Shown here: one piece after another, positions 20,105-46,313 of the stretch | How the letters are laid out: each line of letters starts with the position of its first letter | How positions within the stretch are numbered: position 1 is the stretch's first letter | Assembly (NCBI GenBank): GCA_019459185.1 | Contig: JAIBEO010000017.1 | Span: 5,761 to 69,760 of the forward strand | Source of the DNA: Rhizobium sp. | GTDB lineage: Bacteria; Pseudomonadota; Gammaproteobacteria; Xanthomonadales; Xanthomonadaceae | Direction of reading: 5' to 3' | Length of the DNA: 64,000 nt | Made by a program: the position numbers and the translations under genes | Notes under the pieces: generated by a model | What the model was told of the DNA's origin: nothing | Database searches by the model: none | What the model saw: the letters and a program-made list of their open reading frames with translations, nothing else

Positions 20105-20114
20105 CGCCCCGCCC

Positions 20115-20179
20115 AAAAGAAAAACCCCGGCCGTAGCCGGGGTTATTCGTTGCAGGCGGGCCCGGGGGCCCGCCCCTGC
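20115..20179. terminator. Intrinsic terminator region between convergent recD and TonB receptor genes
   Basis: Stem AACCCCGGC-cgta-GCCGGGGTT (20123-20144) with an A-tract on the left (U-tract on the minus strand); second GC hairpin 20155-20174. Confidence 0.75.
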
Positions 20180-20187
20180 CACTCGCC

Positions 20188-22620
20188 TCAGAACGACTGC
20201 GAGAAGCGGATGCCCACGGTGCGCGGGCGGATGGTGGCCGTGTAGACCTGGCCGTCCGTGTACACCGGGTCCACGCCCGAGGCGCCGCACACGGTCTCGC
20301 CGCAGGCCGTGAACTTGAAGATCTCGGCCCGCTCGTCGAACAGGTTCGACACGTACAGGTCCACCGACCAGTCGTTCTTGCGGAAGCCCGCCGAGAAGTC
20401 GGCCGTGGTGTAGGCACCCAGGTCGCCCAGGATGCTGCGCTCGAGCAGGCGCAGGTCCGACTTGCGCTCGCCCACATGCGACAGTGCCGCCTGCCAGTAG
20501 GCTTCGCCGCCCGCCAGGTCAAACGAGTAGCGTGCGATCAGGTTGCCCTTGAACTTCGGCGTCACCGGCAGCTGCGTGCCGCTCGGCGCTTCCGGGTCGG
20601 CGCAATCCGTCACCGGGTTGCCGTTGATGTCGGTGAAGCCGCAGTAGTTGTCGGTCAGCTTGGCGTCGTAGAAGGCCACGCCGCCGCCGATGCTCAGGTT
20701 GTAGCTGGCCGCCCAGTTCAGCTCCAGCTCCATACCGTCGATCTGCGCCTGGTTGGCGTTCTTGATTTCCGTCAGGCCGTTCGCACCCAGGATCGAGAAC
20801 TGGAAGTCCTCCCAGTCCTGGCGGAACACCGAGCCGTTGAACGAGAGGCGGTTATCGGCCCAGGTGGTCTTCCAGCCGATCTCGAAGTTGGTCAGGTAGT
20901 CCGACAGGTAGGGCGGCAGCGTGCCGCGGCGGTTGATGCCGCCCGGGCGGAAGCCTTCCGACCAAGTGAAGTACACCATCTTGGTGTCGTCGATCTGGAA
21001 AGTCAGGTTCGCCTTGCCGATGGTGCCCGAATCGTCCACCTTCTTGTCGAGGTTGATGCAGGGCGCGCCGTTGAAGTCGGTCTGGTCGAAGCAGGCGGCC
21101 TCGCCCGTGCCGCTGCTGTAGCCCGCGCTGTAGCCGAAGAAGCCCTTGAGGCTGTTGTCGGCCTGGAAATGGCGCGCGCCGATGGTGCCGGTCAGGCGGT
21201 CGGTGAAGTCGAAGCTCAGTTCGCCGAACACCGCCTGGTCGTCGTCCTCGCGGAACTGCTTGGTCAGCCAGATCGTGTTCGGCCAGCCGGTGACGTGCAG
21301 GGAATCGGCGATGCCGTCGATGCGGTAGTCCTGCTGGATGTCATGGTCCTGCTGCTGGAAGAAGAAGCCGCCGACGAAGCGCAGGCGATTCTCCTGCGGC
21401 GAGGCGATGCGGATTTCGTGGCTGGCCTTCTTGTACTGGTCGCGGAACTGGATGTACTGCGACGGGTTCACCAGGTTGCCGTCGTTGTCGTAGAAGTAGG
21501 CGCCGTAGCCGCCCAGGGTGTCGTACCAGAAGGCGTAGTCGCTGTAGTCCGAGGCGCCGTCGACGTCGCGGTCGAGGTGGGCGTAGGCGTAGGTGACGTC
21601 GAAGTTGCCGATCTTGCCCTCGATGGTCAGCGCGGCCTGGGTCCACTGGTCGTCCGAGTACTCGGGGTTGAAGTGCGTGACCTCGAGGTCGCCCACCACC
21701 GGGTCGAAGGCGAAGAAGCCGCCGGCCTCGGTGCGCTGGTGCATCACGGTGGGGCTGATGGTCCAGTTGTCGTTGAGGTTGATCACCGCACCGATGCGCG
21801 CGCCCATCGTGTCGATGTCGTTGTAGTCCTTGCCGGCCAGGTCGTCGTTGAACTCGGTGCCGTTGCCGCCCGAGTCGGCGTCCCAGGACGGGTAGGTGCG
21901 GCTGCCGGAGACGTTGTCGATGTAGCCGGCCTCCTTCTCCTTCCAGCCCACCAGGCGGATGGCCGCGTTCTCGCCCATCGGGATGTTCACGAAGCCTTCG
22001 GCCACGTGGCCCATGCCGCCGCTGCTGGTGGAATCGAGGCCCACGGTGTAGCCGGCCTCGAAGCCGCTCGGGTCGGCCTTGTTGGTGATGATGCGCAGCG
22101 TGCCCGCCTGCGAACTGGCGCCGTACAGCGTGCCCTGCGGGCCGGCCAGCGCCTCGACGCGCTCGACGTCGTAGATGTGGATGTCCAGCGGGCCCTGGAT
22201 GGTGGTGATGGGCTGCTCGTCGAGGTAGACGCCCACGCTCGGCAGCGAGCCGGAGTGGTTGCCGTCGCCGCCGGAAGCCACGCCGCGCATGTAGATCTGG
22301 GCGAAGCCGGGGCCGAAGGTCTGGTAGGAGACCGAGGGCAGGTATTTGACGTAGTCCTCGAAGTTGGTGACGTTCAGGTCGTCCAGGCGCTGGGAGTCCA
22401 GCACCTGCAGGCTGATCGGCACCTTCTGCAGGTTCTCGGTGCGCTTTTGCGCGGTCACCGTGACCTCGTCGAGCGTGACGGCCTGCTGCTCGGCTTCCGG
22501 CGCGGCTTCCTGGGCGAACGCGGCGGAGCCGATCGCCAGGTAGATAGCGGCCGCCAGCGAGGCGCGCGACAGCGTGCGCGCCGTCCCCGCGCTCCGCCGT
22601 TTGATTGTCTGCTTGCTCAT
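20188..22620 (-). CDS. TonB-dependent outer-membrane receptor
   Basis: Signal peptide, TonB box LDEVTVTAQKR, plug motif VERVEALAGPQGTLYGASSQAG, C-terminal TVGIRFSQSF; true start MSKQTIK inside the longer ORF 20188..24378. Confidence 0.93.
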   Translation of the reverse strand: MSKQTIKRRSAGTARTLSRASLAAAIYLAIGSAAFAQEAAPEAEQQAVTLDEVTVTAQKRTENLQKVPISLQVLDSQRLDDLNVTNFEDYVKYLPSVSYQTFGPGFAQIYMRGVASGGDGNHSGSLPSVGVYLDEQPITTIQGPLDIHIYDVERVEALAGPQGTLYGASSQAGTLRIITNKADPSGFEAGYTVGLDSTSSGGMGHVAEGFVNIPMGENAAIRLVGWKEKEAGYIDNVSGSRTYPSWDADSGGNGTEFNDDLAGKDYNDIDTMGARIGAVINLNDNWTISPTVMHQRTEAGGFFAFDPVVGDLEVTHFNPEYSDDQWTQAALTIEGKIGNFDVTYAYAHLDRDVDGASDYSDYAFWYDTLGGYGAYFYDNDGNLVNPSQYIQFRDQYKKASHEIRIASPQENRLRFVGGFFFQQQDHDIQQDYRIDGIADSLHVTGWPNTIWLTKQFREDDDQAVFGELSFDFTDRLTGTIGARHFQADNSLKGFFGYSAGYSSGTGEAACFDQTDFNGAPCINLDKKVDDSGTIGKANLTFQIDDTKMVYFTWSEGFRPGGINRRGTLPPYLSDYLTNFEIGWKTTWADNRLSFNGSVFRQDWEDFQFSILGANGLTEIKNANQAQIDGMELELNWAASYNLSIGGGVAFYDAKLTDNYCGFTDINGNPVTDCADPEAPSGTQLPVTPKFKGNLIARYSFDLAGGEAYWQAALSHVGERKSDLRLLERSILGDLGAYTTADFSAGFRKNDWSVDLYVSNLFDERAEIFKFTACGETVCGASGVDPVYTDGQVYTATIRPRTVGIRFSQSF

Positions 22621-22670
22621 TTCCTTCCCCTCGGCTTGCTTTGTTGGTGTGGGTGTTGCGTGGTGTTGCG

Positions 22671-24689
22671 TCAGCGGAAATGCGGTACGTCCGGGTAGGC
22701 CGTGAGCACGGGGCCCAGGGCGTCCTTGAGCGGCTCGAGCCAGGGCTCGAAGTGGCGCCAGTGGTCGACGCCGTCGCGGTAGATGGGCTGGCGCACCTGC
22801 TCGGAGCTGGCGGTGCGCACGGGGCGCTTGTTCTCGAAGAAGCGCAGGCAGCCTTCCTCGAAGGGCAGGCCGCAGTAGTCGAGCAGGCGCCGCACCTCGG
22901 CTTCGGTGTCGTCGACCATGGATTCGTAGAACACGCGGTGCACGCGCCCCGGCAGCACGGCGTCGTAGTGCGCCATCAGGCGCACGTAGTCGGCGTAGTA
23001 GCGGCCGATGTCGGCCAGCGAATAGGTGAAGGCCTGGCCGCGGGCGAAGTGCTGCTTGAAGCCCGAGAAGCAGCAGGCCAGGGGGTGCCGGCGGGCGTCG
23101 ATGATGCGCGCGTTCGGCAGCATCAGGTGGATCAGCCCGATGTGCATGAAGTTGTTCGGCATCTTGTCGATGAAGAACGGCGCGCCGGTCTTGCGCTGGA
23201 TGCGGGTGTGCTCGAGGTACTGCTGGCCGAGTTCGCGCAGGCGGGCCGGGTCGAGCGAGGCCAGCACGTCGTGGTAGGGCAGGGACTGGCCGGCCTCGCC
23301 GAGCTTGCGCAGCTCGCGGGTGATCGAGATCACCTCGGGCAGCTCCATGGTGCCTTCCACCGCCGAGTGGCTGGAGAGGATCTGCTCGACCAGGGTGGAG
23401 CCGGCGCGCGGCAGGCCCAGCACGAAGATCGGGTCGGGCTCGGGCGCCCCGGCGCCGGCGCGCGCGGCGAAGAATTCCGGCGTGTAGGTGCGCTCGATCT
23501 TCTCCACCCGGGCCGCGGTGTCGTCGGCCGCGTAGTGCAGCTGGGCGCGGCGCAGCGCGTTGCCCTGGTCGTAATGGCCGAAGGAGGCGGCGTAGTCGGC
23601 GCGGTCTTCGAGCGCCTTGCCCAGCGCGAAGTGCAGGTGCTGCACGTCCTCGGGCGCCAGGCCCGGGCGTGCGAGCTGGGCCTGCATGGCGGCTACGTCT
23701 TCGTCGCTGAACTTGAAGGTCTTGAGGTTGGCCAGGCTCCACCAGACTTCGCCGCAGGAAGGGTCCACCGCCAGGCTGCGGCGGTAGGCGGCGATGGCGC
23801 GGTCGGTGTGGCCGGCGGTCTTGAGCGCGTGGCCCTGGCTGAGCCAGATCTTGGCCTGGCCCGGGTGCTCGCGCAGGATGCCGTCGTAGAGCGCGATGGC
23901 CTGCTCGTAGTCGCCGGTGCGGCACAGCACCACGGCCTTGAGGTTGCGGTAGTTGGGGTTGCGCGGGTCGGTGGCCAGCAGCAGGTCGATCTGCGCCAGC
24001 GCCTCGCGCGGCTTGTTGCCGCGGTGCAGGACCAGGGCGTAGTTCTGGCGCGCGGCCTGGAAGCCGGGTGCGAGTTCCAGGCAGCGCTCGAGCAGGCGCT
24101 CGGCGTCTTCCTGGCGGCCGATGCGCGCGGCCAGCTCGGCCATCATGCGCAGCGCGGCCACGTCGGTGGGCGCGGCCGCGAGGTGTTCGCGCAGCAGCGC
24201 TTCGGCCTTGGGCAGCTCGTTCGCATGCAGCGCCGAGGCGGCGGCCAGCAGGCGCGGGTCGCGGGTGGAGAAGCGCACGTGGCTGGCGTAGGCCTCGTCG
24301 GCGGCCTCGAGATCGCCGGCGGCGGCGAGCTGGTCGCCCAGCGCGCGCCAGGCCTGCGGCAGCCCGGGCTTGAGCCACACGGCGCGGCGCAGCGCGGCGA
24401 TGGCGCCGGCGGTGTCGCCGGCCAGGCCGAGCGCGATGCCCAGTTCATGGTGCGCCAGCGCCCAGTTAGGCTGACTGGCCACCAGCGGCCGCAGCGCGTC
24501 GAGCGCGGGCTGCAGCTGGCCCTGCAGGCGGCGCGAGACCGCCAGAATCAAAACGGCCATCGGGTGTTCGCCGACGGCCGTGATGATTTCGCGGGCTTGT
24601 TCGCCGGCAAGCGCGGGCTGGGTCTCGAGCAGCCGGGTGGCATGCGCGAGCGCTTCGTCCAGCCCGGCGGTGGGTTCGGCGGTGGCCAT
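22671..24689 (-). CDS. TPR-repeat sulfotransferase family protein
   Basis: Multiple TPR helices, then PIFVLGLPRAGSTLVEQIL (5'-PAPS loop), FFIDKMP, IIDARRHP, VFYESMV; alternative GTG start at 24716. Confidence 0.85.
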   Translation of the reverse strand: MATAEPTAGLDEALAHATRLLETQPALAGEQAREIITAVGEHPMAVLILAVSRRLQGQLQPALDALRPLVASQPNWALAHHELGIALGLAGDTAGAIAALRRAVWLKPGLPQAWRALGDQLAAAGDLEAADEAYASHVRFSTRDPRLLAAASALHANELPKAEALLREHLAAAPTDVAALRMMAELAARIGRQEDAERLLERCLELAPGFQAARQNYALVLHRGNKPREALAQIDLLLATDPRNPNYRNLKAVVLCRTGDYEQAIALYDGILREHPGQAKIWLSQGHALKTAGHTDRAIAAYRRSLAVDPSCGEVWWSLANLKTFKFSDEDVAAMQAQLARPGLAPEDVQHLHFALGKALEDRADYAASFGHYDQGNALRRAQLHYAADDTAARVEKIERTYTPEFFAARAGAGAPEPDPIFVLGLPRAGSTLVEQILSSHSAVEGTMELPEVISITRELRKLGEAGQSLPYHDVLASLDPARLRELGQQYLEHTRIQRKTGAPFFIDKMPNNFMHIGLIHLMLPNARIIDARRHPLACCFSGFKQHFARGQAFTYSLADIGRYYADYVRLMAHYDAVLPGRVHRVFYESMVDDTEAEVRRLLDYCGLPFEEGCLRFFENKRPVRTASSEQVRQPIYRDGVDHWRHFEPWLEPLKDALGPVLTAYPDVPHFR

Positions 24690-24764
24690 GGCGGCGGTGG
24701 CGGCTCCGGGGGTCACGGGGTCTTCACCCGAATCTAACGTTGTCGCCGGCCGCGGGATAGTCCC

Positions 24765-26153
24765 TCATAGCCCCCCCAGCAGCCGGTGGGTGAATTCCAG
24801 CGACTGGTCGAAGGCCTCGGCGCCGATGCGCTCGTCCTGGCCGTGCGAGCGGTCGTCGTCCACGTCGTAGGGGATGCCGTTGAACACGTACACCGGCAGG
24901 CCGGCGGCCCGCAGGAACAGGCTGTCGGTGGCGCCGGCCGACATGTAGGGCGCCACCGGGATGGGGCCCCAGAGCGGCGTGGCGGCGTCGCGGATGGCCT
25001 GGAACAGGGCCTCGTCCACCGGCGAGGGCGGGCTGGGCGTGGGTTCGGCCACCCGGCGGATCGTGATGCCCGGATCAGCCACCGCGGCGGCCAGCCAGCG
25101 GTCCACCCGGGCCGGGTCTTCGTCGGGCAGCATCCGGCAGTTCACTGTGGCCCGGGCCAGCTGGGGCAGGGCGTTTTCGGCGTGGCCGCCCTCGAGCAGG
25201 GTGGGGGTGCAGGTGGTGCGCAGCTGGGCGTTGTCGTAGGCCGAGCGGGCGGCCAGGCGGCGCAGGGCGGCTTCGTCCTGCGGCAGCGCGGCGGCGGCGG
25301 CCATGTCGGCGGCGGTGGCGCCGGTTTCGAGTTTCGCCAGGCGGGCGTAGTGGCCGCGGGTGGCGGAATTGGTGCGCAGCGGGAATTCGAAGGCGGCCAG
25401 GCCGGCCAGGCCCTTCGCCAGCCGGTGGATGGCGTTGTCGGGCGTGGGCACCGAGCTGTGGCCGCCGGGGTTGCGCACTTCGAAGGTGTAGCTCAGGTAG
25501 ACCTTCTCGGCGGTCTGCACCGGCAGCACCGCCGGCTGGCCGCCGCGGATTTCGGGGCCGCCGCCGTCGAAGTTGATGGCGTAGGCGGCGTCGAGCAGGT
25601 CGGGGCGGTTCGCCAGCAGCCACTGGATGCCGTTGGCCACGCCGTCTTCCTCGCCGGCGGTGAGCAGCAGCAGGTAGTCGCCGCGCGGCACGGTGCCTTC
25701 GGCGCGCAGGCGCAGGAGCGCGGCGGCCGCGCCGGCGGCGCCGCCCTTGATGTCCATGGTGCCGCGGCCGTAGAGCCAGCCTTCGCGTTCGGTGAGCGCG
25801 AACGGGTCGAGCGTCCAGTCCTCGCGGCGGGCTTCCACCACGTCCAGGTGGGCCATCAGCAGCACCGGCTTGCGCTCGCCGCGGCCACGCAGGCGCAGCA
25901 CCAGGTTCTTGCGCAGCGGGTCGTCGCCGAGCAGCAGCACGTCTTCGCGCGGGAAGCCTTCGGCGAGGAAGCGCGCGGCCAGCTTTTCCGCGGCGGCCGT
26001 GGTGCCGGCGCGGGGCGTGGTGTCGGTTTCGATGAGCAGGCGCAGCAGCTCGCGGCCGCGCGCGCGCTCGTGCTCGGGGGCCTGCGGCGGCGTGGCGCCC
26101 GCCGCGGTCGCGAGCAGCAGGGCCAGGGCGAGCAGGGCGGGGCGGGGCGTCAT
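24765..26153 (-). CDS. Secreted M20/M25/M40 family metallopeptidase/amidohydrolase
   Basis: Signal peptide; LMAHLDVV, GRGTMDIKG, GEED, PGGHSS, HGQDE metal-binding motifs. Confidence 0.88.
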   Translation of the reverse strand: MTPRPALLALALLLATAAGATPPQAPEHERARGRELLRLLIETDTTPRAGTTAAAEKLAARFLAEGFPREDVLLLGDDPLRKNLVLRLRGRGERKPVLLMAHLDVVEARREDWTLDPFALTEREGWLYGRGTMDIKGGAAGAAAALLRLRAEGTVPRGDYLLLLTAGEEDGVANGIQWLLANRPDLLDAAYAINFDGGGPEIRGGQPAVLPVQTAEKVYLSYTFEVRNPGGHSSVPTPDNAIHRLAKGLAGLAAFEFPLRTNSATRGHYARLAKLETGATAADMAAAAALPQDEAALRRLAARSAYDNAQLRTTCTPTLLEGGHAENALPQLARATVNCRMLPDEDPARVDRWLAAAVADPGITIRRVAEPTPSPPSPVDEALFQAIRDAATPLWGPIPVAPYMSAGATDSLFLRAAGLPVYVFNGIPYDVDDDRSHGQDERIGAEAFDQSLEFTHRLLGGL

Positions 26154-26166
26154 GGGCGGGTCCGGG

Positions 26167-27369
26167 TCAGGGGCGTTCGAGCGCCAGCGCCAGGCCCTGG
26201 CCCACGCCCACGCACAGGCTGACCAGGGCGCGGCGTTGGCCGTGGCGGCGCAGCGCGAAGGCGGCGGTCATGGCCAGGCGCGCGCCGCTGGCCCCGAGCG
26301 GATGGCCCAGCGCGATGGCGCCGCCGTTGCCGTTGAGCCGCGGGCTGTCGTCGGGCAGGCCCAGGGCCTGGGCGCAGGCCAGCACCTGGGCGGCGAAGGC
26401 TTCGTTGATTTCGATGCGGTCGAAGTCGTCCAGCGCCAGGCCCAGGCGCGGCAGCAGGCGGTTTATCGCCGGCACCGGGCCGAAGCCCATCACCCGCGGT
26501 TCCACGCCGGCCGAGGCCGCGCCGAGCACGCGTGCCAGCGGCTGCAGGCCATGCCGGGCCACGGCTTCGCCCGAGGCCAGCAGCACCGCGGCGGCGCCGT
26601 CGTTGAGGCCCGAGGCATTGCCGGCGGTGATGCTGGTGCCCGCGCCGAGCAGCGGCGGCAGCGCGGCCAGGGCTTCCTCCGTGGTGTCGGGGCGCAGGTG
26701 TTCGTCGAGCGAAACGGTTGCAGCGCGCCTTCCCTGGCCCGCCACGATCGGGGAGATCTCCTCGGCCAGCCAGCCTTCGCGCTGCGCGTGGGCGGTGCGC
26801 TGCTGGCTGCGCCAGGCGAAGGCGTCCTGGCGCTCGCGGCTGACGTGGTGTTCGCGCGCCAGGTTTTCGGCGGTCTGGCTCATCGGGTCCACGCCATGGC
26901 GGGCTTCGAAGGCCGGGTTCACGAAGCGCCAGCCCAGCGTGGTGTCCTGCAGCTGCTGCTCGCGGCCGAAGGCGGCGCCGGCCTTGGCCATCACGTAAGG
27001 CGCGCGGCTCATGCTTTCCACGCCGCCGGCCAGGACGAGGTCGGCGTCGCCCACGGCAATGGCGCGCGTGGCCTGGGCGATGGCCTCCAGGCCGGAGGCG
27101 CAGAGCCGGTTCACCGTCACCGCCGGCACCGTCACGGGCAGGCCGGCCAGCAGCGTGGCCATGCGCGCGACGTTGCGGTTGTCTTCGCCGGACTGGTTGG
27201 CGCAGCCGAGCATCACTTCATCCAGCGCCGCCCAGTCGAGCGACGGGTGGCGCGCCATGAGCGCCGCGATCGGCATGGCCGCCAGGTCATCGGCGCGCAC
27301 GGTGGACAGCGCGCCGCCGTAGCGGCCGAAGGGCGTTCGGGTGGCGTCGACCAGGAAAACCTCAGCCAC
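26167..27369 (-). CDS. pcaF: 3-oxoadipyl-CoA thiolase (PcaF/PaaJ-type)
   Basis: RTPFGRYGG, CANQSGEDNRNVARM, TVNRLCASG, DTTLGWRFVN, NEAFA, GHPLGASG, LCVGVGQG; GTG start. Confidence 0.85.
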   Translation of the reverse strand: MAEVFLVDATRTPFGRYGGALSTVRADDLAAMPIAALMARHPSLDWAALDEVMLGCANQSGEDNRNVARMATLLAGLPVTVPAVTVNRLCASGLEAIAQATRAIAVGDADLVLAGGVESMSRAPYVMAKAGAAFGREQQLQDTTLGWRFVNPAFEARHGVDPMSQTAENLAREHHVSRERQDAFAWRSQQRTAHAQREGWLAEEISPIVAGQGRRAATVSLDEHLRPDTTEEALAALPPLLGAGTSITAGNASGLNDGAAAVLLASGEAVARHGLQPLARVLGAASAGVEPRVMGFGPVPAINRLLPRLGLALDDFDRIEINEAFAAQVLACAQALGLPDDSPRLNGNGGAIALGHPLGASGARLAMTAAFALRRHGQRRALVSLCVGVGQGLALALERP

Positions 27370-28177
27370 GTCCGTGCCCCTGCAGCGCCGGCAGCCAGCC
27401 GCCCTGGCGGATGGCGCGTTCGATGGTCATCTGGGTCTCGTGCAGGATTGGCAGGATCTCCTCGACCGCACGCTTCTTCGAATCGGGCCGGTAGGGCATG
27501 CCCACGTTGAGCCCGGCCACCACTCGGCCATCGGCGGTGCGCACGGGCAGGGCGATCGAGCACAGGCCCAGTTCCAGTTCCTGCGCGGTCAGTGCGTAAC
27601 CCTGTTCGCGCACGCGCTTGAGCTCGGCCTTGAGCGCGCGCGCCTCGGTGAGCGTGTGCGCGGTGTGGGCGCTGGGCGGGTGCTGTTCCAGCCAGGCGTC
27701 GAGTTCGGCCGGCTCCAGCGCCGCCAGCATGACGCGGCCCATCGAGGTGGCGGCGGCCGGCAGCCGCGCACCCACGCCCAGGGCGATGCTCATCACGCGC
27801 CTCACCGGCACGCGCAGCACGTAAACGATGTCGGCGCCGTCGAGCACGGCCATCGAGCACGACTCGCCCACGCGCTGGGCCATCTGCTCCATGGCCTGCT
27901 GGGCCAGCTCGGTGAGGTCGAGCGAGGACAAGTAGCTGTAGCCCAGCTCCAGCACCCGCGGGGTGAGGAAAAACTGCCGGCCGCGCTGGCCGACGTAACC
28001 CAGGTGCTGCAGCGTCATCAGGCTGCGGCGCACCACCGCGCGCGACAGGCCGGTGCGGGTGGCCACGTCGGACAGGCTGGGCGTGGGCAGGTCGCGGCTG
28101 AAGGCGCGCAGCACGCTCAGGCCGCGTGCCAGCGACTGCACGTAGTCGGCGCTGTCCTCGAAAGGTTCGTCGGCCAT
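27362..28177 (-). CDS. pcaR: IclR family regulator, PcaR/PobR subtype
   Basis: DYVQSLARGLSVL, LTPRVLELGYSYLSS, GARLPAAATSMGRVML, QELELGLCSIA; adjacent to pcaF. Confidence 0.8.
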   Translation of the reverse strand: MADEPFEDSADYVQSLARGLSVLRAFSRDLPTPSLSDVATRTGLSRAVVRRSLMTLQHLGYVGQRGRQFFLTPRVLELGYSYLSSLDLTELAQQAMEQMAQRVGESCSMAVLDGADIVYVLRVPVRRVMSIALGVGARLPAAATSMGRVMLAALEPAELDAWLEQHPPSAHTAHTLTEARALKAELKRVREQGYALTAQELELGLCSIALPVRTADGRVVAGLNVGMPYRPDSKKRAVEEILPILHETQMTIERAIRQGGWLPALQGHGRG

Positions 28178-28226
28178 CGGGGCCCTTGGACTGGTTGACA
28201 GGCCGAGCCTAGGAGGATTCCAATGA

Positions 28227-28262
28227 GTTCGCAATACGAATTGATGTTCGATTACCGAACAT
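28227..28262. promoter_or_regulatory. Tandem PcaR/IclR-type operators in the divergent promoter region
   Basis: GTTCG-CAATA-CGAAT (28227-28241) and perfect ATGTTCG-ATTAC-CGAACAT (28244-28262); TTGACA at 28195-28200 upstream on the plus strand. Confidence 0.75.
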
Positions 28263-28287
28263 TTCAGGGTCCCGGGGGGAGATTCCG

Positions 28288-32802: not shown

Positions 32803-32833
32803 GCGCGCGACACCACTTCACGAAGGACCCGCC

Positions 32834-34156: not shown

Positions 34157-34159
34157 GCC

Positions 34160-38709: not shown

Positions 38710-38723
38710 GCCGCGCCGCGCCC

Positions 38724-39863
38724 TCACTTGCCCGGCGCGAGCCGCCCGTGCCGGCGCAGGACTTCCACCAGCGCGGCGTGGTCGATGGCTTTCGCGTAGT
38801 TGCCGCCATGGCCCTGCATGTCGCGCGCCGCGACCATGGCATTGGTGATGGCTTCCTCGGTGGCCTGCACCGTGGCTTCGAACAGCGGGTCCATGCGGTC
38901 GTTGCCGACGAAGCGGGCCTGCTCGAGTTCGCCGCCGTCCAGCGCTTCGGCATTGGCGGTGGAGAAGGCCACAAAAATGTCGCCCGAGCCGTTGCCGGCG
39001 TAGCTGCCCAAACGCGCCAGGCCCAGGCTGGCCCGGCGCGCCAGGCGCTTGAGCTGGTGCGGCAGCAGCGGCGCGTCCGTGGCCACGACGATGATGATCG
39101 AACCGGTGTCGCCGGCCAGCGGATTGGGCTCGGTGTACACGCGGTCGTTGCGCAGGAACTGGCCCACCGGCACGCCGGCGATGCGCAGGCTGTCGCGCAG
39201 GCCGTAGTTCGCCTGCACCAGCACGCCCACGGTGTAGTTGCCGCGCACCCGCGAGGCGGTGCCGATGCCGCACTTGAACTCGTGGCAGACCATGCCGGTG
39301 CCGCCGCCGACGTTGCCTTCGGCCACGGGGCCGCCCTTCGCGCCACGCAGCGCCTGCACGGCGTGTTCGGCGGTTACGTGGAAGCCGTTGATGTCGTTGA
39401 GGTGCCCGTCCCAGGTTTCGGCCACCACCGGCAGCGACCACCAGTAGCCGGTGGTATCGGCGCCGCCGGCGCGCACGCGTTCGGCGATGACGGCGTCACG
39501 CACCACGCCCACGCTGTGGGTGTTGGTGAGCATGACCGGGCCTTCCAGCTGGCCCGATTCCTCCAGCCAGGCGGTGCCGGTCATCTCGCCGTTGCCGTTG
39601 AGCGCGAACCAGCCGCCGAACACCGGGGTGCTGTCGCTGGCCTGGCCGCGCGGCAGCACGGCGGTGACGCCGGTGCGCACCTTGCGGCCGTCGGGCTCGT
39701 CGCGGATGACCGTGGCGTGGCCCACCGTGACCCCGGCCACGTCGGTGATGGCGTTGAGCGGACCGGGCTGGCCCTCGAAGGGAATGCCCAGGTCACGGGC
39801 CCGCGGTTCGGCCGCCGAGGCGCCGGCGGCAAGGACAAGCAGCAACAGGCTGGCGCGGACCAT
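38724..39863 (-). CDS. Secreted P1 family Ntn-hydrolase (DmpA/BapA-like aminopeptidase)
   Basis: Signal peptide then PRARDLGIPF, NAITDVAGV, RTGVTAVLP, EGNVGGGTGM, autocleavage site TG|SIIIVVATDAP, NGSGD, ATEEAI. Confidence 0.9.
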   Translation of the reverse strand: MVRASLLLLVLAAGASAAEPRARDLGIPFEGQPGPLNAITDVAGVTVGHATVIRDEPDGRKVRTGVTAVLPRGQASDSTPVFGGWFALNGNGEMTGTAWLEESGQLEGPVMLTNTHSVGVVRDAVIAERVRAGGADTTGYWWSLPVVAETWDGHLNDINGFHVTAEHAVQALRGAKGGPVAEGNVGGGTGMVCHEFKCGIGTASRVRGNYTVGVLVQANYGLRDSLRIAGVPVGQFLRNDRVYTEPNPLAGDTGSIIIVVATDAPLLPHQLKRLARRASLGLARLGSYAGNGSGDIFVAFSTANAEALDGGELEQARFVGNDRMDPLFEATVQATEEAITNAMVAARDMQGHGGNYAKAIDHAALVEVLRRHGRLAPGK

Positions 39864-39920
39864 GGTTTCTCCCCGAGGATGGCGGTACCACCCGAAGCTT
39901 AATCGAACCCGGCGAAATCC

Positions 39921-40988
39921 ATGCACACTCCCGACGCAATCGTTCCGCTCGAATCCGCCACCGCGCTGCCCGCGCGCTTCTATGTCGGCGACGCCATGCT
40001 GGCGATGGAAAAACGTGCGGTATTCGCACGCAGCTGGCAGCTGGTGGCGCAGCAGGGCCAGCTGGCCGAGCCGGGCGACCACGTAGTGGAGCAGGTGGGC
40101 GACGTGCCGGTGATCGTGGTGCGCGGCCAGGACGGCGTGCTGCGTGCGTTCCCCAACGTCTGCCGGCACCGCGCCGGCCCGCTGGCGCTGTGCAACGGCA
40201 AGGGCGCCCGCGCGCTGCACTGCAAGTACCACGGCTGGAGCTACACGCTCGAGGGCCAGCTGCGCTCGGCCCCGGAAATGCAGGGCGCGGCGGACTTCGA
40301 CGTGTCCTCCATCCACCTTCCACCGCTGCGCGTGGTGGAGTGGCAGGGCCTGGTGTTCGTGGCGCTGAGCGAAAACGTGCCGCCCTTCGAGGAGGTGTAT
40401 GCCGGCATCACCGAACGCATCGCGCCCATCGACCTGGCGGCCATGCGCTTCCTGCGCCGCGACAGCTACGACATCGCCTGCAACTGGAAGGTCTACATCG
40501 ACAACTTCCTCGAGGGTTACCACCTGCCGCACGTGCACCCGGGGCTGTCGAAGGTGCTCGACTACCGCGTCTACGACACCGAACTGTTCCCCTGGCATTC
40601 GCTGCAGCACTCGCCGCTGCGCAACAGCGGCGACATCTATGGCGACGGCGAAGCCTTCTACTACTTCGTCTACCCGAACGTGATGCTCAACATCATGCCG
40701 GGTCGCCTGCAGACCAACCGCATCCTGCCGCTGGGGCCGGACCGCTGCCGGGTGGAGTTCGACTACTACTACGCCCGGGACGAACAGGCCCAGGCCCGCA
40801 TCGCCAACGACCAGGCCTTCAGCGACGGGGTGCAGGCCGAGGACATCACCATCTGCGAGGCGGTGCAGAAGGGCCTGGTCTCGGGTACCTACGAGGCCGG
40901 GCGGCTGTGCCCCAAGCGCGAAAGCGCGCTGTGGCTGTTCCACAACCAGCTGCGCGCCGCCTACGCCGCCGCGGGGAGCGCCGCGTGA
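39921..40988 (+). CDS. Rieske non-heme iron oxygenase alpha subunit (choline monooxygenase/CntA/Stc2-like)
   Basis: CRHR...CKYHGW Rieske motif; NWKVYIDNFLEGYHLPHVH and AEDITIC mononuclear Fe ligands. Confidence 0.9.
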   Translation: MHTPDAIVPLESATALPARFYVGDAMLAMEKRAVFARSWQLVAQQGQLAEPGDHVVEQVGDVPVIVVRGQDGVLRAFPNVCRHRAGPLALCNGKGARALHCKYHGWSYTLEGQLRSAPEMQGAADFDVSSIHLPPLRVVEWQGLVFVALSENVPPFEEVYAGITERIAPIDLAAMRFLRRDSYDIACNWKVYIDNFLEGYHLPHVHPGLSKVLDYRVYDTELFPWHSLQHSPLRNSGDIYGDGEAFYYFVYPNVMLNIMPGRLQTNRILPLGPDRCRVEFDYYYARDEQAQARIANDQAFSDGVQAEDITICEAVQKGLVSGTYEAGRLCPKRESALWLFHNQLRAAYAAAGSAA

Positions 40989-42268
40989 GGCGCGCCGGCC
41001 TGGCGCTGGCCCTGGCCGCAGCGCTGGTGGCCCCGGCCGCCGCGCAGGACCTGGTGCTGCGCGCCGGCCACGTGGTGGACGTGGAAACCGGCGAGGTCCG
41101 CGCCGACCAGGCCATCACCGTGCGCGACGGCCGCATCGCCGCCATCGCGCCGTGGAAAGACGAGGCACCCGAAGGCGCGCGCGTGCTCGACTGGTCCGCG
41201 CACGTGGTGGTGCCCGGCCTGATGGACATGCATACGCACCTGGCCGAGGAAGACCAGAGCGCCGACCTGGCCGCGCCGCTCAAGGCCACGCCGGCCCGCG
41301 CCGCCTTCGTGGGCGCGCGCAACGCCGCCGCCACGCTGCGCGCCGGCTTCACCACCGTGCGCGACGTGGGCGCCTACCGCGCCTTCGCCGACGTGGCCCT
41401 GCGCGACGCCATCAACGAAGGCCTGGTGCCCGGGCCGCGGATGTTCGTGGCCGGCGGCTACGTCACCGTCACCGGCGGCGGCGGCGAACTCACCGGCCTG
41501 CCGGAAGGCAGCGTGGTGACGCCGGAATTCCGCGTGGGCGTGGCCGACGGCGAGGCCCAGGTGCGCCAGGCCGTGGGGCGTTTCCTCGATGGCGGCGCCG
41601 ATTTCATCAAGCTCATCGCCACCGGCGCCGTGCTCACCGCCGGCACCGAACCAGGTTCATCGGAGTATTCCGAAGCCGAAGTGCGCGCCGCGGTGGAAGC
41701 CGCTGCCACGCGCGGCACCTGGGTGGCCGCGCATGCCCACGGCGCCGAAGGCATCGCCGCCGCGGCCCGGGCCGGCGCCCGCAGCATCGAACACGGTTCG
41801 CTGATGGACGACGCCGCCATCGCCGAAATGAAAAGACACGGCACCTGGCTGGTGGCCGACATCTACAACGGCGACTACATCGACGCCGTCGGCCGCCGCG
41901 ACGGCTGGTCGGAAGAGATCCTGCGCAAGAACACCGAAACCACCGAAGCCCAGCGCGCCGGCTTCCGCAAGGCCGTCGCCGCCGGCGTGAACATCGCCTA
42001 CGGCACCGACGCCGGCGTCTACCCGCACGGCGACAACGCCCGCCAGTTCGCCTACATGGTGCGGCATGGCATGTCGCCGCTGCAGGCCCTGCAGTCGGCC
42101 ACCCTCCACTCGGCGCGCCTGCTGGGCCAGGAAAACACGCTCGGTTCCATCACCGTGGGCAAGGCCGCCGACCTGGTGGCCGTGGCCTGCAACCCCCTCT
42201 CCGACATCACCTGCCTCGAGCGTGTGCGCGGCGTGGTGAAGGCCGGCGACCCCGTTCCGATGCATTGA
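40985..42268 (+). CDS. Secreted amidohydrolase superfamily protein (Xaa-Pro dipeptidase-like)
   Basis: GTG start overlapping the Rieske stop, signal peptide, PGLMDMHTH, IKLIATG, AHAHG, IEHG, GTDAG. Confidence 0.85.
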   Translation: MRRAGLALALAAALVAPAAAQDLVLRAGHVVDVETGEVRADQAITVRDGRIAAIAPWKDEAPEGARVLDWSAHVVVPGLMDMHTHLAEEDQSADLAAPLKATPARAAFVGARNAAATLRAGFTTVRDVGAYRAFADVALRDAINEGLVPGPRMFVAGGYVTVTGGGGELTGLPEGSVVTPEFRVGVADGEAQVRQAVGRFLDGGADFIKLIATGAVLTAGTEPGSSEYSEAEVRAAVEAAATRGTWVAAHAHGAEGIAAAARAGARSIEHGSLMDDAAIAEMKRHGTWLVADIYNGDYIDAVGRRDGWSEEILRKNTETTEAQRAGFRKAVAAGVNIAYGTDAGVYPHGDNARQFAYMVRHGMSPLQALQSATLHSARLLGQENTLGSITVGKAADLVAVACNPLSDITCLERVRGVVKAGDPVPMH

Positions 42269-42283
42269 CCCTGCGGACCCTGG

Positions 42284-43588
42284 ATGAACGACACCAAGAA
42301 GATCGGTTTCTGGACCTGCACCGCCCTCGTGGTGGGCAACACCATCGGCATGGGCATCTTCCTGCTGCCGGCCTCGCTGGCGCCGTTCGGGCTCAATGCC
42401 CTGATCGGCTGGGTGGTGGTGGTGCTGGGCTGCCTGGCGTTGGCGCGGGTGTTCGCGCACCTGGCGCGCGAGCTGCCGCAGGCCGAGGGGCCCTATGGCT
42501 ACGTGCGCTCCACCCTGGGCGAACTGCCGGCCTACGTGGCACTGTGGTGCTACTGGGTGTCGCTGTGGATCACCAACGCGGCGCTGGCCACCGGCGTGGT
42601 GGGTTACCTGCAGGCGGTGTTCCCGGAGCTGGTGGTGCTGCATCCTTCGCTGTGCGCGCTGGTGCTGCTGTGGGTATTCGTGGCCATCAACTCGGCCGGC
42701 GTGCGCAGCGGCGGCGCGGTGCAGATCGTCACCACCGGGCTCAAGCTGCTGCCGATGGTGGCGGTCGCCGCGCTGGGCGCCTGGGTGCTCTTCACCACGC
42801 CGGGCGAATACGTGGCGCACCCGCCGACGCCGGCCATCAGCCTGGGCGCGACGATGTCGGCGGCCACCATCGCGCTGTTCGCCATGCTGGGCATCGAATC
42901 GGCCACGGTGCCGGCCTCGAAGGTGCGCGACCCGGGCATCACCATCCCGCGCGCCACCCTGGTGGGCACGCTGGTGGTGGCGGTGATCTACCTCATTGTT
43001 TCCACCGTGCCGCTGCTGCTGATTCCCGAGGCGCAGCTGGCCGAATCGAGCGCGCCGTTCGCGCTGCTGATGTCGCTGTTCGGCGGCGACGGCTCCGGGC
43101 GCTGGCTGGCGCTGTTCGTGGTGGTGTCGGGCCTGGGCGCGCTCAACGGCTGGACCCTGCTGGTGGGCGAACTCACCCGCACCATGGCCGGGCACGGCGT
43201 GCTGCCGGGTTTCCTGGCCGTCGGCAACCGCGCCGGCGCCCCGGGCCGCGCCCTGCTGGTGACCGGCGTTCTGGGCAGCGCCATGGTGCTGATGAGCTAC
43301 AGCAAGACCCTGGTGGCCGGCTTCACCTTCCTCACCACCGTGGTCACCGCCGCCAACCTGCCGCTCTACGCCTGCTGTTCGCTGGCGCTGGTGGTGACCT
43401 GGCGCCGTGGCGGCGGCATGCGCACGGGCATGCTGGTGGCCTCGCTGCTGGCGTTGGCCTTCGTGGTGTTCGCCTTCATCGGCATGGGCCGCGAACCCTT
43501 CCTGTGGGCGCTGGTGCTGGCGGTGGCGGGGCTGCCGCTGTACGCCTTCCTGCGCCTTCGCACCAAGGCGGCGGCCGGCCATGCGTGA
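42284..43588 (+). CDS. APC-family amino acid/polyamine transporter (AdiC/CadB/PotE-like)
   Basis: GNTIGMGIFLLPASLA, GPYGY, LGIESA, DPGITIPRAT; about 12 hydrophobic segments. Confidence 0.88.
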   Translation: MNDTKKIGFWTCTALVVGNTIGMGIFLLPASLAPFGLNALIGWVVVVLGCLALARVFAHLARELPQAEGPYGYVRSTLGELPAYVALWCYWVSLWITNAALATGVVGYLQAVFPELVVLHPSLCALVLLWVFVAINSAGVRSGGAVQIVTTGLKLLPMVAVAALGAWVLFTTPGEYVAHPPTPAISLGATMSAATIALFAMLGIESATVPASKVRDPGITIPRATLVGTLVVAVIYLIVSTVPLLLIPEAQLAESSAPFALLMSLFGGDGSGRWLALFVVVSGLGALNGWTLLVGELTRTMAGHGVLPGFLAVGNRAGAPGRALLVTGVLGSAMVLMSYSKTLVAGFTFLTTVVTAANLPLYACCSLALVVTWRRGGGMRTGMLVASLLALAFVVFAFIGMGREPFLWALVLAVAGLPLYAFLRLRTKAAAGHA

Positions 43589-45665
43589 TCCGCGCTACGA
43601 CGTCCTGTTCGAACCGGTGCGCATCGGCCCGGTGGTGGCGAAGAACCGCTTCTTCCAGGTGCCGCACTGCAACGGCATGGGCCACCAGATGCCGCTGGCC
43701 CACGCCGCCATGCGCGAGGTGAAGGCCGAGGGCGGCTGGGCGGTGATTTCCACCGAAGAATGCGAAATCCACCCCAGCTCCGACCTCACGCCCTACGTCG
43801 AGGCGCGGCTGTGGGACGACCGCGACATCCCGGCGCTCTCGCTCATGGCCGACAAGGTGCACGCGTTTGGCGCGCTGGCCGCCATCGAACTCAGCCACAA
43901 CGGCCCCACGGCCTCGAACCTGTATTCGCGCGAGGTGCTGCTGGCGCCCTCGCACCAGCCTTCGAAGTACGGCTACCCGGCGCAGGCGCGGGCCATGGAC
44001 AAGGCCGACATCCGCGCCTACCGCCAGTGGCACCGCGACGCCGCCGTGCGCGGCATGCGCGCCGGCATGGACATCGTCTACGTCTACGCCGCGCATGACC
44101 TGTCGTTGCCCATGCACTTCCTGCAGCGCCGCCGCAACCAGCGCAGCGATGAATACGGTGGCTCGCTGGAGAACCGCGTTCGCCTGCTGCGCGAAGTGCT
44201 GCAGGATACGAAAGAGGCGGTGGGTCACCGCTGCGGCGTGGCCCTGCGTTTCGCCACCGACGAGTTCCTGGGCCCGGGCGGCGTGGAACTGGCCGAGGCG
44301 CGCGACATCGTGGCCATGCTGGCCGAATTGCCCGACCTGTGGGACGTGAACGTGGCCGCCTGGTACAACGATTCGGTGCCCTCGCGCTTCGCCCCGGAGG
44401 GCGCGCAGGAGCCCTTCATCGACTTCGTGAAGAAGACCACCAGCAAGCCGGTGGTGGGCGTGGGCCGCTTCACCTCGCCCGACACCATGGTCAGCCAGGT
44501 CCGCCGCGGCGTGGTGGACTTCATCGGCGCCGCGCGCCCGTCCATCGCCGACCCCTTCCTGCCGCGCAAGATCGAAGAAGGCCGGCTCGACGACATCCGC
44601 GAGTGCATCGGCTGCAACATCTGCATCACCGGTGACAACACCATCACGCCCATCCGCTGCACCCAGAACCCGGGCATGGGCGAGGAGTGGCGCAAGGGCT
44701 GGCACCCCGAGCACATCGCCCCGAAAAAATCCGACGCGCGCGTGCTGGTGGTGGGCGGCGGCCCGGCCGGCCTGGAAGCCGCGCGGGCGCTGGGCCAGCG
44801 CGGCCACGAGGTGGCGCTGGCGGAAGCGTCGAAGGAGCTCGGCGGCCGCGTCAGCCGCGAGGCGCGCCTGCCGGGCCTGGCCGAATGGGGCCGGGTGCGC
44901 GACTGGCGCGTGGGGCAGATCCGCAAGCTGCCGAACGTATCCACCTACCTCGATTCGACGCTGTCGGCGCAGGACGTGCTCGATTTCGGCGCGCAGCACG
45001 TGGTGCTGGCCACCGGCTGCCACTGGCGCCGCGACGGCTACGGCCGCAGCAACGGCCTGGGCATTCCGGGCCTGGCGGAGCATCCGTCGGTGTTCACGCT
45101 GGACGACCTGATGGACGGCCGCCTGCCCACCGGCACCGTGGCGGTGTTCGACGACGACTATTTCTACTACGCCACCGTCGCCGCCGAGGCGCTGGCGAAG
45201 GCGGGCTGCCGGGTGGTCTTCATCACGCCCGACGACACGCCAGCGTCCTGGGGCGCCTACACGCTGGAATACCGGCACGTGCGCAAGCGGCTGGCGGCGC
45301 TGGGCGTGGAGATCCGCGTGTCCACCAACCTCACGGGTTTCACCGGGCGCACGCTGTCGCTGGAAGACGTTTGGTCCGACGCGACCTCGACGCTGGAAGT
45401 GGACGCCGTGCTCACCATCACCGCGCGCCTGCCCAACGACGAACTGTTGCACGCCCTGAAGGCCCGCGAAAGCGAGTGGGCCGACGCCGGCATCCAAAGC
45501 GTGGACTGCATTGGCGACGCGCTGGCGCCGGGGCTGATCGCCCACGCCGTGTACGCGGGCCATCGTTACGCGCAGGAACTGGGCGAAGCCAGGACCGGCG
45601 AGGTGCCCTTCAAGCGGCACTTCCACACGGCCGACGCCGCCGACCTGCTTCGCGGCGAAGGCTAG
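43581..45665 (+). CDS. Histamine/trimethylamine dehydrogenase-like FMN, [4Fe-4S] flavoprotein
   Basis: KNRFFQVPHCNGMG (Cys for 6-S-cysteinyl-FMN), ECIGCNICITGD...RCTQN cluster motif, VGGGPAGLEAA nucleotide fold, DALAPG. Confidence 0.85.
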   Translation: MRDPRYDVLFEPVRIGPVVAKNRFFQVPHCNGMGHQMPLAHAAMREVKAEGGWAVISTEECEIHPSSDLTPYVEARLWDDRDIPALSLMADKVHAFGALAAIELSHNGPTASNLYSREVLLAPSHQPSKYGYPAQARAMDKADIRAYRQWHRDAAVRGMRAGMDIVYVYAAHDLSLPMHFLQRRRNQRSDEYGGSLENRVRLLREVLQDTKEAVGHRCGVALRFATDEFLGPGGVELAEARDIVAMLAELPDLWDVNVAAWYNDSVPSRFAPEGAQEPFIDFVKKTTSKPVVGVGRFTSPDTMVSQVRRGVVDFIGAARPSIADPFLPRKIEEGRLDDIRECIGCNICITGDNTITPIRCTQNPGMGEEWRKGWHPEHIAPKKSDARVLVVGGGPAGLEAARALGQRGHEVALAEASKELGGRVSREARLPGLAEWGRVRDWRVGQIRKLPNVSTYLDSTLSAQDVLDFGAQHVVLATGCHWRRDGYGRSNGLGIPGLAEHPSVFTLDDLMDGRLPTGTVAVFDDDYFYYATVAAEALAKAGCRVVFITPDDTPASWGAYTLEYRHVRKRLAALGVEIRVSTNLTGFTGRTLSLEDVWSDATSTLEVDAVLTITARLPNDELLHALKARESEWADAGIQSVDCIGDALAPGLIAHAVYAGHRYAQELGEARTGEVPFKRHFHTADAADLLRGEG

Positions 45666-46249: not shown

Positions 46250-46257
46250 GTTGCAAT

Positions 46258-46279: not shown

Positions 46280-46313
46280 CTGGTCACGGGTCCGCATCGT
46301 GGGGAGCGAAGGC

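Follow-up and report, generated by a model that had tools for sequence, protein, structure and literature searches.

A 25-kb gene cluster in an Arenimonas genome is probably a modular catabolic locus, patchy in its horizontal distribution, that serves to break down an amide-linked, amine-rich compound imported by the cell, and we propose with somewhat greater confidence that its cytoplasmic genes are likely to funnel into 3-oxoadipate. The cluster occupies positions 20188 to 45665 of the 64,000-nucleotide stretch analyzed here (contig JAIBEO010000017.1, positions 5,761 to 69,760; hereafter, the window). The source belongs to Arenimonas, and Arenimonas malthae CC-JY-1, with protein identities of 91 to 98%, is its closest named relative. 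Because the G+C content of the window is about 71%, genes were called by third-position GC, and their proteins were then scanned with Pfam and NCBIfam profiles, giving 18 genes in four transcription units. A first-pass annotation had described a TonB receptor, five hydrolases, a permease, two aminotransferases, an aldehyde dehydrogenase (ALDH), an amine dehydrogenase, and a Rieske oxygenase clustered in this span; all 11 were confirmed by the profile scans. Five genes of the span had been absent from that annotation, namely those for PcaR, PcaF, a CoA-transferase A/B pair, and a TPR-sulfotransferase protein.

A lower β-ketoadipate module among amine-handling genes

The 3-oxoadipyl-CoA thiolase PcaF (26167-27369, minus strand) scored 623.6 bits against the TIGR02430 cut-off of 597 and was the single match to this model genome-wide. 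The adjacent gene on the same strand (27362-28177) encodes a PcaR-type IclR regulator (TIGR02431, 309 bits versus 285); its probable start is the ATG at 28177, and the open reading frame (ORF) reaches 28234. On the plus strand lie the genes for 3-oxoadipate CoA-transferase subunit A of the rhizobial/actinobacterial PcaI type (31166-32020), with 64 to 70% identity to transferases of pca clusters, and for the PcaJ-type subunit B (32017-32802), 57% identical to its Sinorhizobium meliloti and Streptomyces rimosus partners. Subunit B carries a YESG motif, whose glutamate we take to be the catalytic position of family I transferases. In four unrelated taxa, homologues of the transferase stand in the order pcaR-A-B-pcaF beside pobA and pcaDCHGB on pSymB of S. 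meliloti, as IclR-A-B-pcaF-pcaB-pcaD-pcaC with pcaHG on a Stutzerimonas plasmid, as A-B-pcaF-pcaD beside cat genes in Azospirillum, and as IclR-A-B-pcaF in S. rimosus. Such a pcaR-pcaIJF arrangement in Agrobacterium encodes a β-ketoadipate succinyl-CoA transferase and a thiolase and is induced by β-ketoadipate (PMC12285266). Glutaconate CoA-transferase, the assignment suggested by PDB entry 1poi and by JGI names, was dropped because the 64 to 70% homologues reside in canonical pca clusters. The transferase did not reach the cut-off of the Pseudomonas/ScoAB-type PcaIJ model TIGR02428 (36 bits versus 243.55), and a separate ScoB-type gene is present on a different contig of the genome.

The genome, which is 99.96% complete, contains no pcaH, catA, or paaA, no pcaD above cut-off, and no second PcaF. 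A role for PcaR and PcaF in aromatic β-ketoadipate metabolism was rejected on these grounds. Since the aromatic feeder enzymes are missing from the genome, 3-oxoadipate, or its CoA ester, would be supplied by the two aminotransferases and the ALDH that are coupled to pcaIJ.

The first of these enzymes, the class III ω-aminotransferase AT1 (28288-29604, plus strand; Aminotran_3, 275 bits), has taurine:2-oxoglutarate aminotransferase and ω-transaminases as its nearest structures and also resembles putrescine aminotransferases. The ALDH gene (29601-31169, plus strand; Aldedh, 416 bits) overlaps its neighbors by 4 nt on each side. Its product is similar to pyrroline-5-carboxylate (P5C) dehydrogenases (P5CDH; 3qan and 1uzb, about 290 bits) and falls below both P5CDH equivalog cut-offs (TIGR01237, 355 versus 660 bits; NF002852, 390 versus 648 bits). 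The second class III aminotransferase, AT2 (32834-34156, plus strand), belongs to the γ-aminobutyrate (GABA)/ornithine aminotransferase subgroup (NF004426, 578 bits versus 552), with 7vno, PuuE, GabT, and racemases as its nearest solved structures.

With the lower β-ketoadipate pathways of S. meliloti pSymB, Agrobacterium tumefaciens (atu4546-4549), and Streptomyces, the locus thus shares a PcaR-type IclR regulator, a transferase of the same clade, and PcaF, and, as in pcaR-pcaIJF systems, a PcaR-like operator of the form GTTCG-N5-CGAAC adjoins the regulator gene. It differs from those systems in that its genome is devoid of ring-cleavage and lactone enzymes, pcaIJ sits between the ALDH and an aminotransferase gene, and pcaF shares its unit with the exported M20 peptidase, sulfotransferase, and TonB receptor genes.

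Transcription units and a predicted double operator

Unit 1, on the minus strand, comprises the genes for the PcaR-type IclR regulator, PcaF, an M20 peptidase, the TPR-sulfotransferase, and the TonB receptor, joined by an 8-nt overlap (longer pcaR ORF) and then by gaps of 13, 48, and 50 nt; it is closed by a terminator-like hairpin at 20123-20144 (minus strand), whose 9-bp stem includes 7 GC pairs and is accompanied by a T run. Unit 2, on the plus strand from 28288 to 38709, holds the genes for AT1, the ALDH, CoA-transferase subunits A and B, AT2, a TolB-propeller/CehA-McbA protein, and a propeller/S9 protein; four of its junctions are 4-nt overlaps, and the other two are gaps of 31 and 3 nt. 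Through these junctions, the exported CehA and S9 proteins are translationally coupled to the cytoplasmic AT2. Unit 3 is the single S58 (DmpA-type) gene on the minus strand. Unit 4, on the plus strand, encodes the Rieske oxygenase, an amidohydrolase, the APC permease, and a histamine-dehydrogenase-type enzyme; the first two genes overlap by 4 nt, the second and third are 15 nt apart, and the last two overlap by 11 nt.

Two adjacent GTTCG-N5-CGAA(C/T) boxes at 28227-28260, within the 110-bp divergent region between pcaR and the AT1 gene, form a predicted PcaR operator. The boxes lie 19 bp apart, start to start, and are the sole exact matches within the 64 kb; they resemble what we take to be the published PcaR operator of Pseudomonas putida. 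The pair occupies the same position in nearly all PcaR-bearing loci, including alphaproteobacterial ones, with the variant GTGCG...CGCAC in Lysobacter. The M20, sulfotransferase, and receptor genes have no PcaR boxes upstream. The double operator would be expected to tie together two of the four transcription units, units 1 and 2.

The receptor and five exported hydrolases

Signal peptides were judged manually rather than with SignalP, from a basic N-region, a 10-residue hydrophobicity of at least 2.2, and an AxA-like cleavage site. The receptor and all five hydrolases displayed Sec-type signal peptides by this measure (6/6). The feature recurred in orthologues from other genera (CehA, 14/14; S58, 13/13; S9, 8/8; amidohydrolase, 7/7; M20, 5/5), while cytoplasmic controls (AT1, ALDH, AT2, and the Rieske protein) scored only 0 to 1 each. 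The signal peptides reported by the first-pass annotation are thus borne out by the manual inspection and by their retention in orthologues. Its count of five amide hydrolases on five scaffolds held for the folds, which are indeed distinct; the amide-hydrolase label of the CehA-like member is an assumption, given its PHP fold.

The 810-residue TonB-dependent receptor (20188-22620, minus strand) has Pfam Plug and TonB_dep_Rec_b-barrel domains and a signal peptide ending SAAFA|QEAA. Upstream of it, the 681-residue TPR and sulfotransferase protein (22671-24716, minus strand; Sulfotransfer_3, 171 bits, plus TPRs) has no signal peptide and is cytoplasmic. In most Lysobacterales loci its gene comes after that for M20 or PcaF, and in Steroidobacteraceae it adjoins the receptor gene, so that it accompanies the receptor across distant families in two arrangements. 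The exported M20 metallopeptidase/deacylase (24765-26153, minus strand; Peptidase_M20; NF006596, 514 bits versus a cut-off of 349) belongs to an uncharacterized subfamily and has a weak DapE match in the PDB.

The CehA-like protein (34160-36682, plus strand), whose gene starts 3 nt past the end of that for AT2, is exported and combines a TolB-type β-propeller (PD40), a CehA/McbA metallohydrolase domain (NF038032, 227 bits; cut-off, 80), and a β-sandwich. When its catalytic domain (residues 431 to 840) was compared with PDB sequences, the TolB propeller alone was matched, and no relative of the catalytic domain was found. An AlphaFold model of the domain, built with 30 orthologues in the alignment, had a predicted local distance difference test score (pLDDT) of 85 and a predicted template modeling score (pTM) of 0.89 and consists of a PHP barrel followed by a C-terminal immunoglobulin-like β-sandwich and a helical hairpin. 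Foldseek matched the model to TM0559, RNase AM, and EndoQ (2anu, 7ug9, and 7k30). Residues H24, H26, H90, H144, D181, and H182 are invariant across the 30 sequences and are probably metal ligands. The score against the domain model and the large, exported form liken the protein to the CehA/McbA carbaryl hydrolases. Carbaryl is a man-made compound; the gene described here, in contrast, is fixed behind an aminotransferase gene in an ancient operon.

Overlapping the CehA gene by 4 nt, the S9 gene (36679-38709, plus strand) encodes an exported β-propeller and serine peptidase (Peptidase_S9, 172 bits; PD40). The protein fell below the NCBIfam cut-off for Dpp5 and failed that for the lasso peptide isopeptidase Atxe2 (NF033523, 192 bits versus 400), and no lasso peptide biosynthesis genes were found nearby. 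The exported S58 enzyme (38724-39863, minus strand; Peptidase_S58, 385 bits) is an N-terminal nucleophile aminopeptidase of the DmpA/BapA type. It matches DmpA of Ochrobactrum anthropi (1b65, 357 bits) over the full length and is about as near to DmpA as members of this family come; its Gly-Ser self-cleavage site aligns with G249-S250. It also matches BapA (3n2w) with 286 bits; its mature N terminus, PRARDLG, is that of BapA, and both have a signal peptide. DmpA, unlike the S58 protein, has no signal peptide, and the S58 gene differs from both relatives in being embedded in a catabolic locus. The fifth hydrolase, an exported amidohydrolase (40985-42268, plus strand), scored 495.3 bits against NCBIfam NF051886, whose cut-off is 500. 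Its best solved relatives, over the full length, are the Arg/Lys carboxypeptidases Cc2672 (3mtw, 308 bits) and Sgx9359b (3be7, 268 bits), from which it differs in being exported; it is also near the bacterial ochratoxin amidases.

Unit 4 further encodes a Rieske non-heme iron oxygenase α subunit (39921-40988, plus strand), GbcA-like in its N-terminal half, with Rieske and Ring_hydroxyl_A domains and the motifs CxH...CxxH and HxxxxH. The APC permease (42284-43588, plus strand; AA_permease_2, 174 bits) belongs to the basic amino acid/polyamine antiporter group (AdiC, 244 bits; TIGR00905, 243 bits; both below cut-off). The last gene (43578-45665, plus strand), most likely starting at 43578 rather than 43407 and thus overlapping the permease gene by 11 nt, encodes a flavin mononucleotide (FMN)/[4Fe-4S] amine dehydrogenase of the histamine dehydrogenase family. 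Residues 1 to 682 of its 695 matched the histamine dehydrogenases of Rhizobium sp. 4-9 and Nocardioides simplex (6de6 and 3k30, 784 and 780 bits) and, with 576 bits, trimethylamine dehydrogenase (TMADH). The FMN-linking cysteine (Cys31, in VPHC) and the four [4Fe-4S] cysteines (CxxCxxC-x12-C at residue 343) are kept, and an ADP-binding domain is present. The gene differs from those of its solved relatives in its coupling to the APC permease and Rieske oxygenase genes, and flavin amine oxidases replace it in related loci.

Conservation and modularity of the locus

We examined conservation with the CehA-like protein as query, one genome per species, and 10-kb flanks, which returned 80 loci from Arenimonas, Pseudoxanthomonas, Lysobacter, Noviluteimonas, Dyella, Rhodanobacter, Mizugakiibacter, Steroidobacteraceae, Nevskiaceae, Sphingomonas, Sphingomicrobium, and Caulobacteraceae. 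Gene order around the CehA gene is conserved in these loci across Lysobacterales, Steroidobacteraceae, Sphingomonadales, and Caulobacterales, and the recurrence of one order in 80 loci indicates that the cluster is not a product of chance. Counted over loci with enough flank, AT2 was present in 56 of 71, CoA-transferase B in 53 of 69, ALDH in 52 of 65, AT1 in 51 of 63, S58 in 50 of 67, S9 in 48 of 71, and the APC permease in 47 of 59. PcaR (44/63), PcaF (39/62), the amidohydrolase (39/61), the Rieske oxygenase (32/65), the dehydrogenase (32/56), and M20 (26/60) followed. The operon in Sphingomonas reads AT-dehydrogenase-S58-ALDH-CoA-transferase-CehA, with one aminotransferase only, and one Caulobacteraceae genome has PcaR divergent from AT1-ALDH-AT2-CehA-APC-dehydrogenase-S58; 4-nt overlaps occur in both. 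Beyond the 10-kb flank, a single receptor orthologue with 63 to 69% identity was located 10.5 to 11.7 kb from the CehA gene, at the same relative position, in five of five genera, and in Steroidobacteraceae a receptor with 48 to 54% identity and the sulfotransferase flank the cluster on the opposite side. The gene-neighborhood analysis therefore upholds the co-conservation expected by the first-pass annotation: the genes are kept together across orders and classes, the receptor included. The Lysobacter niastensis receptor orthologue (G006:C10:212857-215352) aligns in two pieces, with the break at query residue 262, which may be a frameshift or a pseudogene.

Within this framework, individual parts vary. 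Lysobacter and Steroidobacteraceae loci carry two tandem flavin amine oxidases in place of the dehydrogenase (L013, 18765-23215; L079, 16145-19255), and the Lysobacter version adds a GcvT-like folate-binding protein; this replacement hints at an N-alkylated amine. The distribution is sparse: an even sampling of 121 genomes across the order yielded the CehA-like protein in 5, including that of the window, and in neither of the 2 same-genus nor any of the 12 other same-family genomes of the sample. A search of 12 further species of the genus did not recover the transferase. In two congeners (G122:C5 and G133:C12), about 6 kb separates recD from acnD, versus 26.7 kb in the window, and the Rieske and dehydrogenase genes, directly coupled by a TGATG junction, are all that lies between. 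Relative to them, the window has an extra 19.7-kb block from the receptor to S58 (20105-39920) and an extra 2.6-kb amidohydrolase-permease block (40985-43577) between the Rieske and dehydrogenase genes. The Rieske and dehydrogenase proteins are 76 to 79% identical to those of the congeners versus 78 to 86% to those of other genera, values that are compatible with horizontal exchange. The locus is thus an accessory, modular island and not one indivisible system. Its core consists of AT1-ALDH-AT2, CehA, S58, and the permease, usually together with pcaIJ, pcaF, and pcaR; separable parts that nonetheless recur often are the amine-oxidizing pair, M20, S9, the amidohydrolase, and the receptor.

Proposed mechanism and candidate substrate

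Judging from its family, the TonB receptor would move the compound across the outer membrane, and the five Sec-exported hydrolases, their activities again assigned by family, would dismantle it in the periplasm. The S58 aminopeptidase would remove N-terminal β- or D-residues and the Cc2672-type amidohydrolase C-terminal basic residues, and the APC permease would import the freed basic amino compound. One aminotransferase or the histamine-dehydrogenase-type enzyme would then convert a terminal amine to an aldehyde, the P5CDH-like ALDH would oxidize the aldehyde, and the second aminotransferase would turn a β-amine into a ketone, yielding 3-oxoadipate. The PcaIJ-type transferase and PcaF, identified by orthology, would convert the latter to succinyl-CoA and acetyl-CoA. 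Acting at the double operator, the PcaR-type regulator would control both the AT1-to-S9 operon and the divergent pcaR-pcaF-M20-sulfotransferase-receptor unit, with 3-oxoadipate as its probable ligand.

The first-pass annotation had proposed a system like the polysaccharide utilization loci (PULs), importing and dismantling amide- or amine-containing compounds and catabolizing the released amines. Receptor, exported hydrolases, permease, catabolic genes, and regulator support such a system. The Pca genes of the lower β-ketoadipate end point narrow the released compound to one convertible to 3-oxoadipate rather than amines in general, and the substrate classes listed by the annotation (nonstandard peptides, β-peptides, acyl-polyamines, and peptide antibiotics) are conjectural. 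As in the TonB utilization loci of Xanthomonas (carbohydrate utilization loci with TonB-dependent transporters [CUT loci]) and Bacteroidota (PULs), a receptor, exported degradative enzymes, an inner membrane transporter, and a local regulator occur together and are co-conserved. In contrast to those loci, glycoside hydrolases and SusD are absent, the enzymes are of peptidase and amidohydrolase types, and the cytoplasmic part strips amino groups. The locus would thus combine two known kinds of system, a TonB-receptor utilization locus and a lower β-ketoadipate pathway rewired to an amino compound. Full-text literature searches retrieved no description of the locus or of a route from a diamino acid to 3-oxoadipate.

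As the substrate we tentatively favor β-lysine (3,6-diaminohexanoate), from β-lysyl or other basic peptides, while granting that the odds still lie somewhat against it. It is favored because it is the simplest substrate that would arrive at 3-oxoadipate through just two transaminations and a single aldehyde oxidation: the ε-amine would become an aldehyde, the aldehyde 3-aminoadipate, and 3-aminoadipate 3-oxoadipate. The aldehyde would cyclize to a P5C-like pyrroline, which suits a P5CDH-like ALDH that fails the P5CDH cut-offs. The exported DmpA/BapA-type aminopeptidase and the basic amino acid permease likewise suit the release and uptake of β-lysine. For the terminal amine, the dehydrogenase, or flavin amine oxidases elsewhere, suggests itself as an alternative to AT1, because the Sphingomonas operon pairs a single aminotransferase with a dehydrogenase.

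Among plasmids, the best homologue of the ALDH (44% identity) is encoded 2.5 kb from a KamA-family gene; KamA linkage was confined to this homologue, the matches on Streptomyces plasmids being ordinary pcaIJF or unrelated. The region concerned, 287302-306849 on a plasmid of Rhizobium sp. CB3171, carries a KamA-family radical S-adenosylmethionine gene, the P5CDH-like ALDH gene (44%), a class III aminotransferase gene, a GNAT gene, and a histone-deacetylase-family gene, and looks like an acetylating β-lysine locus. Known β-lysine routes are the KamA-KamDE-Kdd-Kce-Kal fermentation of clostridia and the acetylating route in Pseudomonas B4 and in the kamA-yod region of Bacillus subtilis. The present locus shares with them a class III aminotransferase, a CoA-transferase, and an M20-type deacylase, which there accompany β-lysine metabolism, and proximity of KamA and YodT is on record (PMC6522883). 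It differs in containing no aminomutase, acetyltransferase, B12 mutase, or cleavage enzyme, and in that the predicted product is 3-oxoadipate rather than acetoacetate.

Counterevidence and alternative explanations

Several observations weigh against catabolism of an amide-linked compound through β-lysine to 3-oxoadipate. PHP-fold enzymes are mostly phosphoesterases, which is why an amide-hydrolase activity of the CehA-like protein is an assumption. The subgroups of AT1 and AT2 act mainly on terminal amines, not β-amines, and that of AT2 also includes racemases (PMC6047364). The KamA link depends on one homologue of 44% identity. Only two of five genomes with no apparent PcaF near the cluster encode one above cut-off elsewhere; in some of the five, a short contig or flank makes that absence uncertain, and the TIGR02430 cut-off also misses the Caulobacter thiolase of the control set. 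The Rieske-dehydrogenase pair occurs alone in two congeners, and the 57 bp between the S58 and Rieske genes contain a conserved −10-like element but no PcaR box, so the S58/Rieske module may serve another substrate. Lastly, PcaR and PcaIJ can respond to and act on adipate and glutarate in other bacteria (PMC12543098), and a route through C5/C6 dicarboxylates may therefore operate instead.

Such a route would start from a diamine or ω-amino acid: cadaverine, 5-aminovalerate, or a similar compound would be converted to glutarate or adipate, followed by CoA-transferase, β-oxidation, and thiolase, with PcaR sensing the dicarboxylate. We consider it unlikely, though deserving of serious attention. 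Besides the promiscuity of PcaR and PcaIJ, the likeness of AT1 to ω-transaminases and putrescine aminotransferases and of AT2 to GabT, PuuE, and ornithine aminotransferases speaks for it, as do a dehydrogenase family that oxidizes primary amines, a permease of the polyamine/basic amino acid group, and an amidohydrolase near Arg/Lys carboxypeptidases. However, the route needs two aldehyde oxidations and the cluster has one ALDH, which is P5CDH-like and not PatD- or GabD-like. Acyl-CoA dehydrogenase, hydratase, and hydroxyacyl-CoA dehydrogenase are absent from every version of the cluster, and the transferase is orthologous to the 3-oxoadipate transferases of pca clusters.

The cluster might instead be a mosaic of independent neighboring operons, for peptide scavenging, an amine-oxidizing pair, and an amino acid pathway, joined by hitchhiking. 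The solitary Rieske-dehydrogenase pair at the same chromosomal site in the two congeners, the exchange of the amine-oxidizing genes in Lysobacter and Steroidobacteraceae, the incomplete occurrence of M20 and the Rieske oxygenase, and the S58/Rieske promoter devoid of a PcaR box all point this way. We nevertheless find this explanation improbable: translational coupling joins the exported CehA and S9 proteins to AT2 in the cytoplasm; in Sphingomonas and Caulobacteraceae, one compact operon holds S58, the dehydrogenase, the ALDH, an aminotransferase, and CehA; distant families keep the receptor linked to the cluster, in two arrangements; and one operator region serves the units that hold the receptor, three hydrolases, and the pathway.

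An ornithine/arginine route, in which AT2 would be ornithine δ-aminotransferase and the ALDH a true P5CDH turning basic residues into glutamate while the pca genes were used otherwise, has very little to commend it, since P5C dehydrogenases as the nearest solved relatives of the ALDH, the acetylornithine/ornithine/GABA subgroup of AT2, and an amidohydrolase resembling arginine carboxypeptidases are set against an ALDH far under the P5CDH cut-offs, a pcaIJ pair lying between the ALDH and AT2 genes in the same coupled operon, and AT1, PcaIJ, PcaF, and PcaR left unexplained in a genome with no 3-oxoadipate source.

Genes flanking the locus

Upstream of the locus lie a RecD helicase gene (11413-20104, plus strand, which includes two long ORFs before it that are presumably recB and recC) and an RND efflux pair (5931-10382, plus strand). 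Downstream, an aconitase-family gene, probably acnD, and prpF occupy 46780-51303 (plus strand). A DsbG-like gene at 45662-46516 is missing from one congener. Farther on, an 815-residue frame (53457-55904, plus strand) joins an Abhydrolase_3 domain to a flavin monooxygenase-like domain and is either a true fusion or two merged genes. The window contains no tRNA genes, and neither an integrase nor an insertion sequence element was found among the border proteins scanned.

Biological implications

A more specific possibility, to which we give only a slim chance, is that the locus is a catabolic, and hence detoxifying, island for β-lysine-bearing cationic antibiotics from soil actinomycetes, such as those of the streptothricin or tuberactinomycin classes. 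The receptor would then take up a cation of 0.5 to 1.2 kDa, S58 would strip the terminal β-lysine, and the CehA-type enzyme would cleave off a carbamoyl or ureido group; opening of the guanidino or peptide core would fall to the S9, M20, and Arg-carboxypeptidase-like enzymes, and β-lysine would be burned via 3-oxoadipate. Were this the case, this natural carbamate-hydrolyzing family would be the source from which CehA and McbA had recently been recruited as carbaryl hydrolases.

Catabolism toward 3-oxoadipate offers a route, open to testing, by which a diamino acid would reach succinyl-CoA and acetyl-CoA with the final two enzymes of an aromatic pathway and its regulator put to new use. The locus suggests that TonB-receptor utilization loci outside Bacteroidota can target amide- and amine-rich compounds instead of sugars, and it places exported and cytoplasmic enzymes in translational coupling within one operon. 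It also supplies a natural genomic context for CehA/McbA, the DmpA/BapA β-aminopeptidases, and the Cc2672-type carboxypeptidases. In soil and water metagenomes, at least 8,000 relatives of the transferase subunit were scored, and of the 120 best listed, nearly all shared at least 77% identity; a locus this common in these environments may matter for the turnover of organic nitrogen.

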